24,387 nucleotides of DNA, from UHGV virus genome UHGV-0076424, one strand, 5' to 3'. Positions 1 to 22,372 of the stretch are shown here, piece after piece (position 1 is the stretch's first letter; each line of letters begins with the position of its first letter). Both the position numbers and the translations under genes were made by a program. The DNA is from a virus. The notes below the pieces were generated by a model. That model searched no databases. It saw nothing but the letters and a program-made list of their open reading frames with translations, and was not told the origin of the DNA.

Positions 1-18
1 ATGAAGATTCCGACGTTA

Positions 19-243
19 CTAACTGAGTGTTGTATCTAATCGTGGGGGCAGGTCAAGCGCAATATCCTCGTTCTCCTGGTCGCGGCGTTTGATGTATTGC
101 TGGTTTCTTTCCCGTTCATCCAGCAGTTCCAGCACAATCGATGGTGTTACCAATTCATGGAAAAGGTCTGCGTCAAATCCCCAGTCGTCATGCATTGCCT
201 GCTCTGCCGCTTCACGCAGTGCCTGAGAGTTAATTTCGCTCAC
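19..243 (-). CDS. Hypothetical acidic 74-aa protein, distal gene of the early-left (pL) operon
   Basis: Intact ORF co-oriented with exo/bet; its start overlaps the stop of the upstream zinc-finger ORF by 4 nt. No family recognised. Confidence 0.4.
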   Translation of the reverse strand: MSEINSQALREAAEQAMHDDWGFDADLFHELVTPSIVLELLDERERNQQYIKRRDQENEDIALDLPPRLDTTLS

Positions 244-461
244 TTCGAACCTCTCTGTTTACTGATAAGTTCCAGATCCTCCTGGCAACTTGCACAAGTC
301 CGACAACCCTGAACGGCCAAGCGTCTTCGTTCATCTATCGGATCGCCACACTCACAACAATGAGTGGCAGATATAGCCTGGTGGTTCAGGCGGCGCATTT
401 TTATTGCTGTGTTGCGCTGTAATTCTTCAATTTCTGATGCTGAATCAATGATGTCTGCCAT
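240..461 (-). CDS. Small TraR/DksA-like C4 zinc-finger protein
   Basis: 73 aa with two Cys pairs (CCEC ... CRTC) spaced as in C4 zinc fingers; co-oriented in the early-left operon. Confidence 0.5.
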   Translation of the reverse strand: MADIIDSASEIEELQRNTAIKMRRLNHQAISATHCCECGDPIDERRRLAVQGCRTCASCQEDLELISKQRGSK

Positions 462-559
462 CTTTCATTAATCCCTGAATTGTTGGTTAATACGCTTGAG
501 GGTGAATGCGAATAATAAAAAAGGAGCCTGTAGCTCCATGATGATTTTGTTTTTCATGC

Positions 560-775
560 TCACCGTTCCTTAAAGACGCCGTTTAACATGCCGATCGCCA
601 GGCTTAAATGAGTCGGTGTGAATCCCATCAGCGTTACCGTTTCGCGGTGCTTCTTCAGTACGCTACGGCAAATGTCATCGACGTTTTTATCCGGAAACTG
701 CTGTCTGGCTTTTTTGATTTCAGAATTAGCCTGACGGGCAATACTGCGAAGGGCGTTTTCTTGCTGATGTGTCAT
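560..775 (-). CDS. Lambda orf61-like early protein
   Basis: From the internal Met (MTHQQENALRSIARQ...) the product matches lambda orf61 as recalled. The track ORF extends to 841, but that N-terminal extension is probably not translated. Confidence 0.6.
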   Translation of the reverse strand: MTHQQENALRSIARQANSEIKKARQQFPDKNVDDICRSVLKKHRETVTLMGFTPTHLSLAIGMLNGVFKER

Positions 776-851
776 TGAACAAGTCCCATGTCGGCAAGCA
801 TAAGCACACAGAATATGAAGCCCGCTGCCAGAAAAATGCATTCAGTGGTTG

Positions 852-1043
852 TCATACCTGGTCTCTCTCATCTGCTTCTGCTTTCGCCACCATCATTTCC
901 AGCTTTTGTGAAAGGGATGCGGCTAACGTATGAAATTCTTCGTCTGTTTCTACTGGTATTGGCACAAACCTGACTCCAATTTGAGCGAGGCTATGTGCCA
1001 TCTCAATGCTCGTTCTTAACTCAACAGGAGATGCTTTGTGCAT
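852..1043 (-). CDS. Lambda orf63-like early protein
   Basis: Product [23 protein letters not shown]... is near-identical to lambda orf63 as recalled. Confidence 0.65.
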   Translation of the reverse strand: MHKASPVELRTSIEMAHSLAQIGVRFVPIPVETDEEFHTLAASLSQKLEMMVAKAEADERDQV

Positions 1044-3325: not shown

Positions 3326-3497
3326 AACTAAGTCGCCTCGTTGAAGCGACTAAGGTATGAAATGTTGAGTTAATTTCAGCTGGTCACACCGACGTTCACG
3401 CGTCCGTTTCACCCCTCGCACTCCCCGGAGCCTGCTGAAATTCAAGCTGCGGATCTAAGCGGTCATCGCAACGGTGAATCAGGTGATTGCCGTATCG

Positions 3498-3600
3498 TTG
3501 TGTTGTTGCGATGAATTCATTTAAAACTATAGTTGTTTTATCGTCAACAACAAAAGTTGTTTTATTGGTTGTTTTAGATATAACTGGTTGTATTTAAGAT
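3498..3600 (-). promoter_or_regulatory. Candidate pL promoter with OL operators
   Basis: Minus strand reads TTGACG, a 17-nt spacer, then TTAAAT (plus 3542-3547 and 3519-3524). The spacer carries AAAACAACTATAGTTTT, which matches the pR spacer operator AAAACAACCATAGTTTT with one change. More GGTTGTT/AACAAC repeats lie at 3545-3593. Confidence 0.5.
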
Positions 3601-3683: not shown

Positions 3684-3717
3684 AGGCAAAAGAAAACCCG
3701 GCACTGGGGCCGGGTTT
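3684..3717 (-). terminator. Intrinsic terminator ending the cI-cassette transcript (timm-like)
   Basis: 8-bp GC-rich stem AACCCGGC/GCCGGGTT with a 6-nt loop, followed on the minus strand by TTTTCTTTT; sits just downstream of the 146-aa gene. Confidence 0.55.
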
Positions 3718-3792: not shown

Positions 3793-4233
3793 CTAAAGAA
3801 AAAAGTACATTGATAGCTTATAAAGACCTGTTCCTGCAGCGATGATTGCTGGAACACCAAGCAATACCGCAAGCTTTGCGTCTGAAATCTTTCTATCGAC
3901 AGCATCGATGGAGGGTTTTTTGGCTAGTGAATCTTTTATTGAATCGAGTCGCTCCAGAACAGCGATCATGTTTCTGTCGATAGATTTGACATCTGTCTTA
4001 AGCTCATCAACGTCACGTCGGATATAGGACACATCAGACTCAAGCTTTGCAACTTTCGATTCAAGCACATTATTACTCCCAGAGCCACCGCTACCACTTG
4101 ATTGTAGCATAGGTACATTACCGCCAGACATACCAGCTGATTGAGAAAATGCTGCAGTGTGCAAAGATGATGATCTTGCCGCTTGTTCAAGCTTTTCAGT
4201 TAGGTTTGGAGCTTCGTAATAACCGTGTTTCAT
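3793..4233 (-). CDS. Coiled-coil protein with C-terminal transmembrane anchor (XhlA-like architecture), rexB-position gene
   Basis: 146 aa: Ser/Gly-rich N-terminus, heptad-like segment (VLESKVAKLESDVSYIRRDVDELKTDVKSIDRNMIAVLERLDSIKDSLAKK), hydrophobic C-terminus (LAVLLGVPAIIAAGTGLYKL). Low GC compared with the flanking lambda genes. Confidence 0.6.
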   Translation of the reverse strand: MKHGYYEAPNLTEKLEQAARSSSLHTAAFSQSAGMSGGNVPMLQSSGSGGSGSNNVLESKVAKLESDVSYIRRDVDELKTDVKSIDRNMIAVLERLDSIKDSLAKKPSIDAVDRKISDAKLAVLLGVPAIIAAGTGLYKLSMYFFL

Positions 4234-4241
4234 TGTTAATA

Positions 4242-4511
4242 TTATGACTTATTGGTTTTAGCTCTATCATGCTGATCGCGAATAAAGTCAGCGAGTTTAA
4301 GCATTAAATCTTCCGTCATGCGAATTGTTGCAATGTTGTACTTTACGTTTTCAGTGTCATTACTACCATCAGCGCCCCATTCTGTAACATGCTGAAAGAA
4401 AGATATGGAGCCTAAGCGATCGTCATCTTCCCCAAAAGATGAATATCCAAATGCATCAGCATATGCATCTACACAGTTATTTGATTTTTTTATAAGTTTT
4501 TTATCACTCAT
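4242..4511 (-). CDS. Hypothetical acidic 89-aa protein, rexA-position gene
   Basis: Intact ORF 80 nt downstream of the cI stop and 8 nt upstream of the 146-aa gene; low GC; no family recognised. Confidence 0.55.
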   Translation of the reverse strand: MSDKKLIKKSNNCVDAYADAFGYSSFGEDDDRLGSISFFQHVTEWGADGSNDTENVKYNIATIRMTEDLMLKLADFIRDQHDRAKTNKS

Positions 4512-4590
4512 TTTTGCCTTTCCCGTAATGTTATTTTTATAAAGAATTCTTTCAGCGCATTACCCAAAAGCCTCATCAGCACGCAGCTGA

Positions 4591-5280
4591 TTATCCGTGT
4601 TTCCTATACGTCTGCGGCATACTGCCAATAACCTTCCCGAAAATGAACACCCGGTTCATCTCGTCTTTCTCGATCGGGTCCCACGGTGAGTAGCTCTTGT
4701 TATCAGAGATAACCAGTAGCTTATCTTTCATCATTTGCAGGCGCTTTACATGGGCTGTGTCGTCGTACAGAAACGCATAGATACCATCACCGTCGAAAGA
4801 TTTAACCGTGATATCAACGAACAGCAGATCACCTGGTTCGATCGTTCCTGACATGCTGTCACCACGCACGTTAATGATGCGGATATTTTCCGCCTTCCTG
4901 CCATCGAACATGTGACGAGCATCGTCAAACGAGTACTCAACCGAGCGTAGAACTTCTACAAATTCACGGTTGATGACTCCCGGCCCGGCACTCACTTCTA
5001 TATCAAGAACGTCAATCTTAAAGTATTTGGAATGGCTGACAGTTGATTGTATTGGTTGCACTGTACTGTCTGACATATTTCCAACGCCAGAAGATAACCA
5101 TTCTGCGCGCACACCCAAAGCGTTCGCGATCTCCACGATTTTAGTTGTTTGGTTAGCTTTCCCTGTTTCGATTTTCTGAATAGCAGCTTGGCTAACCCCG
5201 ACCAAATCCCCAAGCGCCTTTTGTGTAAGGCCTCGCGCTAATCTGGCTTCTTTAAGTCTTTCTGAGAGTGTTGTTTTCAT
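4591..5280 (-). CDS. cI-type prophage repressor (HTH plus S24 LexA-like autopeptidase domain)
   Basis: 229 aa from the Met at 5280 (MKTTLSERLKEARLARGLTQKALGDLVGVSQAAIQKIE...). HTH motif, Ala-Gly cleavage site (VSAGPG), GDSM catalytic Ser and a downstream Lys (HVKRL). Divergent to the cro-like gene. Confidence 0.9.
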   Translation of the reverse strand: MKTTLSERLKEARLARGLTQKALGDLVGVSQAAIQKIETGKANQTTKIVEIANALGVRAEWLSSGVGNMSDSTVQPIQSTVSHSKYFKIDVLDIEVSAGPGVINREFVEVLRSVEYSFDDARHMFDGRKAENIRIINVRGDSMSGTIEPGDLLFVDITVKSFDGDGIYAFLYDDTAHVKRLQMMKDKLLVISDNKSYSPWDPIEKDEMNRVFIFGKVIGSMPQTYRKHG

Positions 5281-5384
5281 AGTCCAAATGTACAACCAAG
5301 GTTTTATTCCATCAAACGAAAATGGTTGTTGACTAAAAACAACCATAGTTTTAATCTTGATTCAAATTAACCACGGAGGTTGTT
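5281..5384. promoter_or_regulatory. OR operator region with pR (and presumably pRM)
   Basis: pR: TTGACT (5329-5334), 17-nt spacer, TAATCT (5352-5357), GGAGG RBS, ATG at 5385. Palindromic AACAACCAT/ATGGTTGTT operator motifs are repeated three times. Confidence 0.6.
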
Positions 5385-5615
5385 ATGAATCCAGCTATCA
5401 AAACAGCGATCAATATCGTTGGTTCACAAAAGAAACTGGGCGCTGCCTGCGAAGTTTCACAGCAGGCCGTCTATAAGTGGCTTCACAACAAAGCAAAGGT
5501 ATCCCCTGAACATGTCGGCAGCATTGTTACGGCTACTGGTGGAGTAGTGAAGGCATACCAGATTCGCCCGGATCTTCCGAAGTTGTTTCCACACACCGAA
5601 AAGAACGCAGCTTAA
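5385..5615 (+). CDS. Cro/YdaS-like HTH regulator
   Basis: 76 aa with an HTH (SQKKLGAACEVSQQAVYKWL); first gene rightward from pR, divergent from cI. Confidence 0.75.
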   Translation: MNPAIKTAINIVGSQKKLGAACEVSQQAVYKWLHNKAKVSPEHVGSIVTATGGVVKAYQIRPDLPKLFPHTEKNAA

Positions 5616-5684
5616 ATTTCCATTTCACGCTCTTTAACAATAAGCAATCAACTTAACAGTCAATTCAAACTAAAGGAGTCAATT

Positions 5685-6224
5685 ATGCAACCACTTACAT
5701 ACCAACAGACTAGCGGATTTAGCCCGACTGCGGTGATAAATCGTTCTCAAACAAAACAGGTGCCAGGCCACGAAAAAATCCGTGATGCCGTCCGCGCCTG
5801 GTCGGCTGAAGATAATCAGGATGTCGTTGCCACACTCATTGTGAATGAGTATCGGGAGCAGGGCGGCGGCACTATCGATTTCCCTGATGATGTCAGCCGT
5901 GCACGCCAGAAGCTGTTCCGCTTCCTCGATAACAAATTCGATTCTGAAAAATACCGAAATAACGTGCGTGAACTGACCCCGGCAATTCTGGCGGTACTAC
6001 CGCTGGAATATCGCGGCCACCTGGTTGAGCAGGATAGCTTCATGGCTCGGCTGGCTGAAATGGAAAAGGAACTCTGTGAGGCAAAGCAGGCGGTCATTCT
6101 CAACGCACCACGCCACCAGAAACTGAAGGAGATGAGTGAAGGCATTGTGTCGATGTTTCGAGTGGACCCGGATCTGGCTGGTCCATTGATGGCGATGGTC
6201 ACCACCATGCTGGGGGCAATATGA
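5685..6224 (+). CDS. cII-position protein, possibly YdaT-family (CII-like) regulator
   Basis: 179-aa ORF with AGGAG RBS between cro-like and O; the EYREQGGG segment resembles my recollection of Rac YdaT. Its stop overlaps an in-frame upstream ATG of O (ATGA). Confidence 0.55.
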   Translation: MQPLTYQQTSGFSPTAVINRSQTKQVPGHEKIRDAVRAWSAEDNQDVVATLIVNEYREQGGGTIDFPDDVSRARQKLFRFLDNKFDSEKYRNNVRELTPAILAVLPLEYRGHLVEQDSFMARLAEMEKELCEAKQAVILNAPRHQKLKEMSEGIVSMFRVDPDLAGPLMAMVTTMLGAI

Positions 6225-20172: not shown

Positions 20173-22372
20173 CAGGCTGCGGCATTTTGTCCGCGCCGGG
20201 CTTCGCTCACTGTTCAGGCCGGAGCCACAGACCGCCGTTGAATGGGCGGATGCCAATTATTATCTCCCGAAAGAATCCGCATACCAGGAAGGGCGCTGGG
20301 AAACACTGCCCTTTCAGCGGGCCATCATGAATGCGATGGGCAGTGACTACGTCCGCGAGGTGAATGTGGTGAAGTCTGCCCGTGTTGGTTATTCCAAAAT
20401 GCTGCTGGGTGTTTATGCCTACTTCATAGAGCATAAGCAGCGCAACACCCTTATCTGGTTGCCGACGGATGGTGATGCCGAGAACTTTATGAAAACCCAC
20501 GTTGAGCCGACCATCCGCGATATTCCTTCGCTGCTTGCGCTGGCCCCGTGGTATGGCAAAAAGCACCGGGATAACACGCTCACCATGAAGCGTTTCACCA
20601 ATGGGCGTGGCTTCTGGTGCCTGGGCGGTAAAGCGGCAAAAAACTACCGTGAAAAGTCGGTGGATGTGGCGGGTTATGATGAACTTGCTGCCTTTGATGA
20701 GGATATTGAACAGGAAGGCTCTCCGACGTTCCTTGGCGACAAACGTATTGAAGGCTCGGTCTGGCCAAAGTCCATCCGTGGCTCCACGCCCAAAGTGAGA
20801 GGCACCTGCCAGATTGAGCGTGCAGCCAGTGAATCCCCGCATTTTATGCGTTTTCATGTTGCCTGCCCGCACTGCGGGGAGGAGCAGTACCTTAAATTTG
20901 GCGATAAAGAGACGCCGTTTGGCCTCAAATGGACGCCGGATGATCCCTCCAGCGTGTTTTATCTCTGCGAACATAATGCCTGCGTCATCCGCCAGCAGGA
21001 GCTGGACTTCACTGATGCCCGTTATATCTGCGAAAAGACCGGGATCTGGACCCGTGATGGCATTCTCTGGTTTTCGTCATCCGGTGAAGAGATTGAGCCG
21101 CCGGACAGCGTGACCTTTCACATCTGGACGGCGTACAGCCCGTTCACCACCTGGGTGCAGATTGTCAAAGACTGGATGAAAACGAAAGGGGATACGGGAA
21201 AACGTAAAACCTTCGTAAACACCACGCTCGGTGAGACGTGGGAGGCGAAAATTGGCGAACGTCCGGATGCTGAAGTGATGGCAGAGCGGAAAGAGCATTA
21301 TTCAGCGCCCGTTGCCGCACCGGCAGCGCCGTCGCGGATTGAGCTGACGCCGGGCTATTTTCAGATAACCGCCACGCCGCATCTTGCGGTTTATGATCCG
21401 ACGGTACAGTTTGAGTTCTGGTTCTCGGAAAAGCGGATTGCGGATATCAGGCAGGTTGAAACCACAGCACGCTATCTTGGCACGGCGCTGTACTGGATAG
21501 CCGCCAGTATCAATATCAAACCGGGCCATGATTATTACTTTTATATCCGCAGTGTGAACACCGTTGGCAAATCGGCATTCGTGGAGGCTGTTGGTCAGCC
21601 GAGTGATGATGCATCCGGTTATCTGGATTTTTTCAAAGGCGAGATAGGGAAAACCCATCTGGCTCAGGAGCTGTGGACGCAGATTGATAACGGTCAGCTT
21701 GCGCCTGACCTGGCTGAAATCAGGACGTCCATTACGGATGTCAGCAATGAAATCACGCAGACCGTCAATAAGAAACTGGAAAACCAGAGTGCGGCAATTC
21801 AGCAGATACAGAAGGTTCAGGTTGATACAAATAATAACCTGAACAGCATGTGGGCTGTGAAGCTGCAGCAGATGCAGGACGGACGCCTTTATATCGCGGG
21901 TATTGGTGCCGGTATTGAGAACACCCCTGACGGCATGCAGAGTCAGGTGCTGCTGGCGGCGGACAGGATTGCGATGGTTAATCCTGCGAATGGCAACACA
22001 AAACCGATGTTTGTTGGTCAGGGCGATCAGATATTCATGAACGACGTGTTCCTGAAACGCCTGACGGCCCCCACCATTACCAGCGGTGGCAGTCCTCCGG
22101 TATCGCCGGAAGGGGAGTTTCAGAAGTGGAACGGCACAGCCTGGGTGAAAGATGCAGAAGCAGAAAAACTGTTCCGGATCCGGGAGGCGGAAGAAACAAA
22201 AAACAGCCTGATGCAGGTAGCCAGTGAGCATATTTCGCCACTTCAGGATGCGGTAGATCTGGAGATTGCAACGGAGGAAGAAATATCGTTGCTGACAGCC
22301 TGGAAGAAGTATCGGGTATTGCTGAACCGTGTTGATATTCTTGAGCCAGTTTGGCCTGTGCAACCACAATAA
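20147..22372 (+). pseudogene. Chimeric deletion-scar ORF: terminase large subunit A N-terminus fused in frame to tail-tip J and tail-fibre-assembly (Tfa) C-terminal fragments
   Basis: Residues 1 to ~390 (to KEHYSAPV) match lambda gpA. The product then continues as [34 protein letters not shown]...[20 protein letters not shown] (lambda J C-terminal region) and ends [17 protein letters not shown]...LLNRVD (Tfa C-terminus). Confidence 0.8.

Follow-up and report, generated by a model that had tools for sequence, protein, structure and literature searches.

What is encoded by two small genes that lie directly behind the repressor gene of a lambdoid prophage, and what might they do in the lysogen? 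The question is raised by UHGV virus genome UHGV-0076424, a stretch of 24,387 nucleotides (nt) which is analysed here as a whole and referred to as the window. The interval that follows the repressor gene is the oldest known home of phage exclusion (rexAB), and an earlier interpretation made without database searches (the sequence-only reading) had proposed that the two genes form an uncharacterised exclusion or abortive-infection cassette. The best explanation, to which we give a probability of roughly one half, is that the pair is a two-component superinfection-exclusion or abortive-infection module, expressed in the lysogen and composed of a swappable sensor and a conserved membrane effector. 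This reading is drawn from linkage to the repressor, occupation of the rexAB and sieA slots, deviant base composition, mobility, the combination of a variable unit with a conserved core, and a dual start reminiscent of sieB/esc.

The window is a lambdoid prophage, an identical copy of which is found in E. coli Sx181-0-1, and the locus in question consists of the following elements (positions are those of the window).

4591-5280, minus strand: cI-type repressor gene, helix-turn-helix (HTH) plus S24 peptidase (Pfam Peptidase_S24 1.5e-18, HTH_3 6.5e-13)
4512-4590, minus strand: spacer of 79 nt between the cI stop and the next gene, read from the sequence
4242-4511, minus strand: gene for the soluble partner protein of 89 amino acids (aa; PHROG 4231, function unknown), an open reading frame (ORF)
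3793-4233, minus strand: gene for the 146-aa long form of a tail-anchored coiled-coil membrane protein (PHROG 3556), an ORF matching phrog_3556 at 4.3e-54
3694-3717, minus strand: strong intrinsic terminator closing the cI-89-146 unit (9-base-pair stem with 6 GC pairs, U tract; fold z -3.3 against shuffled sequence)
3521-3565, no strand assigned: oL operators with pL, bounding the immunity region on the left (repeats common to oR at 5311-5354)

The two co-oriented ORFs lie precisely where the sequence-only reading had put them, and its placement of the pair in the rexAB position agrees with the lambda map, as cI, the cassette, the terminator and then oL/pL follow one another in that order. The layout of the window is that of a DLP12-type locus, and the gene order in the Sx181-0-1 copy is int, xis, exo, bet, gam, kil, the pair, cI, cro, a YdaT-domain gene, O, P, ren, emrE and ybcK. 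The repeats shared by oL and oR are both inverted and direct (I1, I3, I6, D3). They bracket the locus, so that the immunity region contains cI, both genes and the terminator, just as that of lambda contains cI, rexA and rexB. The deviant composition that had been claimed for the cassette was also found when GC content and GC at third codon positions (GC3) were computed. The pair has a GC content of 36.3% and 42.6% (GC3 29% and 33%), against 46-52% for the lambda-type genes cI, bet, gam, cro and O (GC3 48-58%).

cI is presumed to be the first gene of an operon. A scan of the 4512-4590 spacer for a terminator-like site on the minus strand found none, and the layout fits co-transcription of the pair with cI, presumably from pRM. 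The ribosome-binding site of the 89-aa gene is a weak AAGG located 5 nt ahead of the ATG. The 146-aa gene begins 8 nt past the stop of the 89-aa gene with an ATG that lacks a Shine-Dalgarno (SD) sequence, and this short gap, together with the SD-less ATG, suggests that translation of the 146-aa gene may be coupled to that of its partner. A separate promoter for the 146-aa gene was considered at 4270-4241 on the minus strand (ATGATA, 18 nt, CATAAT) and rejected. The site is found at the 3' end of the 89-aa gene, 8 nt short of the 146-aa ATG, in a position that recalls lambda pLIT within rexA; it is given no weight because the promoter scan yields fewer sites (2) than shuffled sequence does (4.5). 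At the other end of the unit, the longest cI ORF (251 aa) extends to 5346, through the oR operators. RefSeq, which calls a 229-aa S24 family peptidase in the identical prophage, and the homologues begin with MKTTLSERL (229 aa, start at about 5280), and this is the likely start of cI.

Both genes are real and under purifying selection. Comparison of alleles gives a ratio of non-synonymous to synonymous substitution rates (dN/dS) of 0.06-0.10 in the 89-aa gene and 0.19-0.25 in the 146-aa gene; inside the latter it is 0.27-0.57 in the N-terminal third and 0.12 in the part that encodes the coiled coil and anchor. Of 5426 complete E. coli genomes, 201 carry the cassette, in every case as a single chromosomal copy, and at least 80% of it is covered in 198 of the 201. 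The allele group of the window accounts for 3.7% of complete E. coli genomes. When the window is compared with the commonest other allele the cI protein is identical and the adjoining cassette is only 75-79% identical, giving a sharp mosaic boundary at the cI end.

The proteins themselves agree with the pairing of a soluble and a membrane component described in the sequence-only reading. The 89-aa protein is acidic (pI 4.98) and contains no hydrophobic segment. Its predicted fold has three long β strands followed by a C-terminal helix, and the model bears a weak resemblance to the nucleic-acid-binding PC4 and Pur-alpha folds. The 146-aa protein shows the architecture that had been attributed to it, namely a Ser/Gly-rich stretch (about residues 32-55), a coiled coil and a single C-terminal hydrophobic segment from residue 121, and can be divided as follows on the basis of alignments and an AlphaFold model with its per-residue confidence score (pLDDT).

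4141-4233, minus strand: codons 1-31, variable N-terminal tail (low-confidence AlphaFold helix at residues 10-31)
4069-4140, minus strand: codons 32-55, disordered Ser/Gly-rich linker (pLDDT <50 for residues 24-52; alignments)
3922-4068, minus strand: codons 56-104, seven-heptad coiled coil (a/d pattern; AlphaFold helix 55-104)
3796-3873, minus strand: codons 121-146, C-terminal transmembrane anchor LAVLLGVPAIIAAGTGLYKLSMYFFL (Kyte-Doolittle maximum 1.8 at 119-137)

In other members of the family the linker is a poly-Gly run. The heptads of the coiled coil are unbroken over residues 57-103 (a = VVVVMLL, d = LLILIVI), and a short basic segment separates the coiled coil from the anchor, which is included in a second AlphaFold helix at residues 109-145. 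The anchor is rich in small residues and is the most conserved segment of the family. As the protein has no signal sequence and few residues past the anchor, its bulk probably faces the cytoplasm.

Neither protein has an above-threshold family in scans of Pfam, NCBIfam and PADLOC, which returned only coiled-coil noise, and the two PHROGs to which they are assigned are both of unknown function. A profile of the 89-aa protein matched nothing among solved structures. The corresponding profile of the 146-aa protein retrieved trimeric coiled coils (Lpp, tail needle) at E values of at least 0.009, which were treated as compositional. Thus no strong homology to a characterised non-defence family was found for either protein in Pfam, NCBIfam, PHROGs or solved structures. 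The statement that neither is RexA/RexB or SieB holds and extends to SieA: blastp against lambda RexA and RexB gave chance matches only (E at least 1.5), no Rex family was matched in Pfam, NCBIfam or PADLOC, and blastp against P22 SieA, P22 SieB, orf59a and lambda SieB revealed no similarity (E at least 2.4). A direct comparison with gp17 likewise showed no similarity. Tai (PMC11364771) was also considered and is unrelated. None of the tblastn matches was to a record named 434, a result by which a relation to 434 Hex is neither shown nor excluded. In public records the proteins of the window are named 'hypothetical' or carry a coiled-coil misnomer such as 'chromosome segregation ATPase', and the literature, searched by locus tag, accession and topic, yielded no work on the function of either one or of named homologues.

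Relatives of the membrane protein form 108 clusters in a word-indexed search. An exhaustive profile search gave 87 representatives at E ≤1e-10 and 1258 at 1e-3, the latter figure being inflated by coiled-coil proteins. The relatives of the 89-aa protein are much narrower (15 clusters). Related sequences occur in Salmonella, Citrobacter, Klebsiella, Enterobacter, Pantoea, Erwinia and Serratia. The conserved parts of the membrane protein are the coiled coil and, more strongly still, the anchor region, with L124, L125, G126, V127, P128, T135, Y138 and K139 nearly invariant, and the N-terminal third cannot be aligned between subgroups.

The neighbours of 92 loci encoding a relative of the membrane protein were examined. 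A small soluble partner followed by the membrane protein emerged as a recurring family: wherever upstream sequence exists, the membrane-protein start is preceded at a distance of at most a few bases, or overlapped, by the end of a small co-oriented ORF. Counting elements on the same strand within 1.5 kilobases (kb) upstream of the pair, a cI-type HTH repressor precedes it at 67 loci, Mnt at 10 and a DUF6246 tail-region gene at 6; nothing was recognised at the other 9, of which 3 are contig edges. The repressors are of several types, including the S24 type of the window, a short 155-aa CI_repr type (Salmonella, Citrobacter) and true lambda cI. The order in HK544 is gp42 repressor, gp41, gp40, pL and N, that in epsilon34 is gp46, gp45, gp44, OL/PL and N, and the Stx1 phage of O157 Sakai carries the same repressor-partner-membrane arrangement (ECs2991/ECs2992). 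The first gene of this distantly related Sakai pair, ECs2991, has been detected in the lysogen proteome (PMC3936929), and the literature treats the stretch from cI to N, home of rexAB and bstA, as a hotspot (PMC8585504).

A second home is found in P22-like phages (UPF_BP1, several IMG/VR contigs and a Serratia prophage), which carry the pair in the orientation of mnt, flanked by this gene and gene 16; on the P22 map this interval is occupied by orf59a and sieA. In an Erwinia prophage the pair is placed on the opposite strand among lambda-like tail genes, and in another group of loci it follows DUF6246, beside an antirepressor gene, in a tail cluster. One contig, IMGVR_UViG_2903019871_000003 (L060, L082), carries two pairs, one after cI with an HK544-type partner and one after DUF6246 in the tail region with a Cys-rich partner. 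In the Citrobacter prophages L004-L008 a third co-oriented gene (about 5474-5854 in those loci) is located after the pair and before pL; it encodes 126 aa with a weak BamE-like match (E 9e-4), and indicates that the repressor-linked slot can take further envelope-related cargo. The features expected of an accessory cassette ('moron') are found together here, in that GC3 is deviant (29-33% against 48-58%), a terminator is present, and four kinds of site are used (after cI, after mnt and two tail-gene sites). The pair therefore behaves as a self-contained accessory cassette, two homes of which are classical superinfection-exclusion slots.

Position alone is no proof of defence, because genes of this slot also tune the lysis-lysogeny switch (434 Hex, RexA). 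It is conceivable, though we consider it unlikely, that the cassette modulates its own switch in this way, through RecA-dependent cleavage, repressor or Cro activity, or early lytic steps. Hex and RexA/RexB are co-transcribed with the repressor and act thus: 434 Hex, encoded downstream of cI on the pRM transcript, lowers RecA-stimulated cleavage of the repressor (PMC3564112), and RexA and RexB aid the transition to lytic growth (bioRxiv 10.1101/2021.04.19.439022). The tight linkage to several repressor types, including Mnt, fits a regulatory partner, as does the weakly PC4/Pur-alpha-like model of the 89-aa protein. However, the same membrane protein stands behind unrelated repressors (S24-cleavable cI, the short non-S24 CI_repr and the Arc/Mnt type), so that a shared regulatory target is hard to see, and the pair is also located within tail-gene clusters distant from any switch. 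In addition, the acidity of the 89-aa protein (pI 4.98) is a poor fit to DNA binding, and control of the switch needs no membrane anchor.

The construction of the pair is modular. The partners belong to families between which no sequence relation is detectable: PHROG 4231 (the window), 5893 (136-187 aa, in three subclusters), 12039 (HK544 gp41), 4293 (Cys-rich) and singletons. A common origin of the 89-aa family and the HK544 gp41 family (PHROG 12039) was considered, but hhalign found nothing and homology is not claimed; for a singleton 88-aa partner the alignment was weak, at a probability of 6%. Over 34 distinct pairs, partner identity follows the identity of the N-terminal tail closely (Mantel r 0.90), compared with r 0.29 and a partial correlation of about 0 for the identity of the coiled coil and anchor. 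Two comparisons with the window illustrate this. UPF_BP1 has a partner of 76% identity, an N-tail of 70% and a core of 32%, and Pantoea/Erwinia-type loci have a partner of 4-7%, an N-tail that is not alignable and a core of 77-81%. Core identity is 27-31% for HK544 and for lambda-immunity loci with an epsilon34-type partner. One and the same partner-plus-tail unit is found on three different cores, the third being of the L052 type, and the break between unit and core falls in the Gly-rich linker. Since the codons of the tail lie next to the partner gene, the co-variation of the two proves a recombination module rather than binding; it is also the pattern that would be expected if the partner docks on the tail.

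This exchange of parts bears on whether the pair is instead a toxin-antidote module, in which the soluble protein neutralises a membrane-active toxin, or some other module of lysogenic conversion that is of use to the prophage or host but does not act on phages (post-segregational stabilisation of the prophage, or a change in envelope or stress state). A small acidic protein encoded first and a membrane protein second, tightly coupled, resembles antitoxin-toxin operons; strong conservation and an abundance of small residues are traits that the transmembrane helix has in common with small membrane toxins, and the Citrobacter BamE-like lipoprotein gene that follows the pair hints at envelope cargo. 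Against this, whole partner families are replaced and the core is kept, a pattern more usual where specificities change than in a toxin-antidote pair of fixed composition. The cassette is moreover found in the slots of rexAB and sieA, and scans of Pfam and NCBIfam gave no similarity to known toxin or antitoxin families. An explanation of this kind therefore appears improbable.

A further property of the membrane protein is a predicted internal start, which is defined by two elements.

4076-4080, minus strand: internal SD sequence GGGAG, 7 nt upstream of GTG codon 56 (from the sequence)
3793-4068, minus strand: predicted 91-aa short form, comprising the coiled coil and anchor only, with its start at GTG codon 56 (4068-4066; conserved SD sequence and start)

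In the family a nearly invariant Met opens the coiled coil, though it is off the core heptad positions. Among 27 distinct homologous sequences, 26, with every partner type among them, have an SD core 4-9 nt before the start equivalent to codon 56; the start codons concerned are ATG (24) and GTG (2). The cores, of 4-6 nt, are GGAG, GGAGG, AGGAGG or GGAGGT and are formed from GGA-GGN glycine codons, or from GGG-AGT in the subgroup of the window. Resampling of synonymous codons for the same amino acids gave an expectation of 10.3 and a maximum of 18 in 2000 trials, against the 26 observed, although the sequences are related and these statistics overstate their independence. As a background control, an SD core precedes only 6.9% of internal ATGs in 254 long ORFs from the same loci, where GGA makes up only 13.7% of the Gly codons that precede another Gly. 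Gene finders call the exact 91-aa product on 243 contigs, with 146-aa and 105-aa versions elsewhere. Since the ATG of the long form has no SD sequence and relies on nearness to the partner stop, two products are predicted, of which the long form would be synthesised along with the partner and the short form, consisting of coiled coil and anchor, independently of it. The internal start also bears on annotation, as public records vary between 146, 105 and 91 aa.

Dual starts are typical of holin/antiholin genes, and the sequence-only reading had called the 146-aa protein XhlA-like and suited to membrane disruption. The likeness in architecture stands, as a coiled coil is followed by a C-terminal anchor; membership of the family does not, as the protein scores 11.5 bits against PF10779, and its closest sister branch at most 25.2 bits, with a gathering threshold of 34.7, and membrane disruption is an analogy. 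Could the protein then be an XhlA-type lysis accessory of the lytic cycle, next to cI by accident? Weak sub-threshold matches to PF10779 and to PHROG 'hemolysin' families, and the name hemolysin XhlA given to some sister-branch database entries, speak for such a role together with the architecture and the dual start. The gene is nevertheless inside the immunity region, upstream of the terminator and on the repressor strand, and none of the surveyed loci lies in a lysis cassette by holin or endolysin genes. Related DLP12-type prophages have their lysis genes elsewhere, which also counts against a lysis accessory, and we regard this as very unlikely.

What the analysis shows directly is the make-up of the genes, the selection on them, their synteny, the swapping of modules and the conserved signal for an internal start; the exclusion or abortive-infection module that we prefer may be envisaged as follows. 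The 146-aa protein would be anchored in the inner membrane via its C-terminal helix, with stalk, Ser/Gly linker and N-tail in the cytoplasm. The 89-aa protein, produced in step with the long form by translational coupling, would dock on the N-tail, such that partner and tail would constitute the swappable specificity or sensor unit and the coiled coil and transmembrane helix the common membrane-acting part. The 91-aa short form could join the assembly by way of its coiled coil and set the level of activity or hold it back, in the manner of Esc towards SieB and of S107 towards S105. Infection by a foreign phage might then cause the sensor unit to alter the state of the membrane assembly, leading to a block of entry or to membrane collapse.

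Several points weigh against this interpretation. The functional argument is drawn wholly from position and architecture, and other genes of the rexAB slot (Hex, RexA) have non-defence roles. The defence models of PADLOC-DB v2.0.0 gave no match, with only coiled-coil noise for the 146-aa protein (E at least 0.006) and nothing for the 89-aa protein, and the pair was not found by accession in the DefensePredictor supplements. The 89-aa family is under strongly purifying selection (dN/dS 0.06-0.10), unlike the diversifying pattern of some sensors. Co-variation of partner and tail could stem from linkage near the recombination break in the linker. Finally, the 146-aa AlphaFold model is of low confidence (pLDDT 60), and the 92 surveyed loci are related and partly redundant, so that counts taken from them are not independent.

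The pair may, somewhat tentatively, be the first described member of a widespread, undescribed family of Enterobacterales prophage immune modules, in which a conserved dual-start membrane effector is combined with plug-in sensors, each made up of a soluble partner and the N-terminal tail that matches it, both exclusion slots have been colonised, and a swap of sensor retargets the module to other phages. To our knowledge, the working of Rex-type sensor-plus-membrane systems is still poorly understood. The present cassette is far smaller than Rex (89 aa and a single-anchor protein of 146 aa), and if it is a defence system it would offer a tractable model for the passage of a cytoplasmic signal to a membrane effector, with natural variants in specificity. 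These swap variants separate the variable unit from the conserved membrane core. If induction is controlled instead, the cassette would matter for how stably many prophages are maintained, among them those of Shiga-toxin-producing strains.

Elsewhere in the window, the segment from pL to kil (3326-3500, minus strand) contains no N-like ORF of at least 40 aa, and a C-rich transcript of about 170 nt lies between. It is 87-96% identical to the same region of the lambdoid coliphages IdasGreatGrand, PhiR5_1, 4A7 and Perceval. A put-like antitermination RNA was considered here, as an N gene is lacking, and rejected: Rfam gave no match, and shuffled sequence folds about as well (z -0.23). Antitermination in this phage might depend on RNA in the manner of HK022. 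Three further observations concern other parts of the window.

5685-6224, plus strand: 179-aa YdaT-domain protein in the cII position after cro, as in Rac-type switches and in many related loci
1-1042, minus strand, cut by the window start: DGQHR-domain gene (DndB/DpdB-like) in the early-left region beyond exo, placed by alignment with Sx181-0-1; it may be further defence-related cargo
22146-22344, plus strand: Rfam RF02111 (IS009), matched over its full length at 205 bits (gathering score 117)

Comparison with known systems places the pair closest in position to lambda RexA/RexB. Both occupy the slot after cI and before the terminator and oL/pL, on the repressor strand; both consist of two genes, with the one for the soluble protein ahead of the one for the membrane protein and expression in the lysogen presumably driven by pRM, and the proposed logic of a cytoplasmic sensor and a membrane effector is the same. 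A trait of RexAB is the exclusion of T4 rII and other phages by depolarising the membrane. They differ in that RexA is a protein of 279 aa and RexB has four hydrophobic segments, whereas the window encodes an 89-aa protein and a coiled-coil protein with a single anchor, and Rex is without a described counterpart of the swappable partner and N-tail or of the internal start. P22 SieA shares the second slot, as the mnt-gene 16 interval holds the pair in P22-like phages and orf59a-sieA in P22 itself, but SieA (164 aa) has four hydrophobic segments, no coiled coil and no sequence similarity to the pair. The resemblance of the 146-aa gene to SieB/Esc would lie in a single gene that encodes both a complete membrane protein and, through an internal start, a version truncated at the N-terminus. 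For P22 the truncated product, Esc, is annotated as restraining the long SieB. SieB has its hydrophobic segment at the N-terminus, a different genomic position and no sequence similarity.

XhlA (PF10779), which is associated with lysis in Bacillus PBSX, is of the same size class and likewise has a cytoplasmic coiled coil followed by a C-terminal anchor. The 146-aa family differs in falling below the Pfam cut-off, in its location in the immunity region or in accessory inserts rather than in a lysis cassette, and in its Gly-rich linker, variable N-tail and obligatory upstream partner. BstA of BTP1 and Hex of 434 are similarly cargo located directly downstream of the repressor and expressed in the lysogen. 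They are single soluble proteins with no membrane component, and BstA acts at phage DNA replication sites; no similarity to either was detected in the family scans, Hex being set apart by description and not by sequence. The pairs HK544 gp41/gp40, ECs2991/ECs2992 and epsilon34 gp45/gp44, all annotated as hypothetical, belong to the same family as the pair of the window and have the same order, but their partners are from PHROG 12039 and 5893 and their N-tails are different. Prophage cargo that is linked to the repressor and combines a soluble with a membrane component is known as a kind; the proteins described here, their plug-in construction and the predicted dual start are new.

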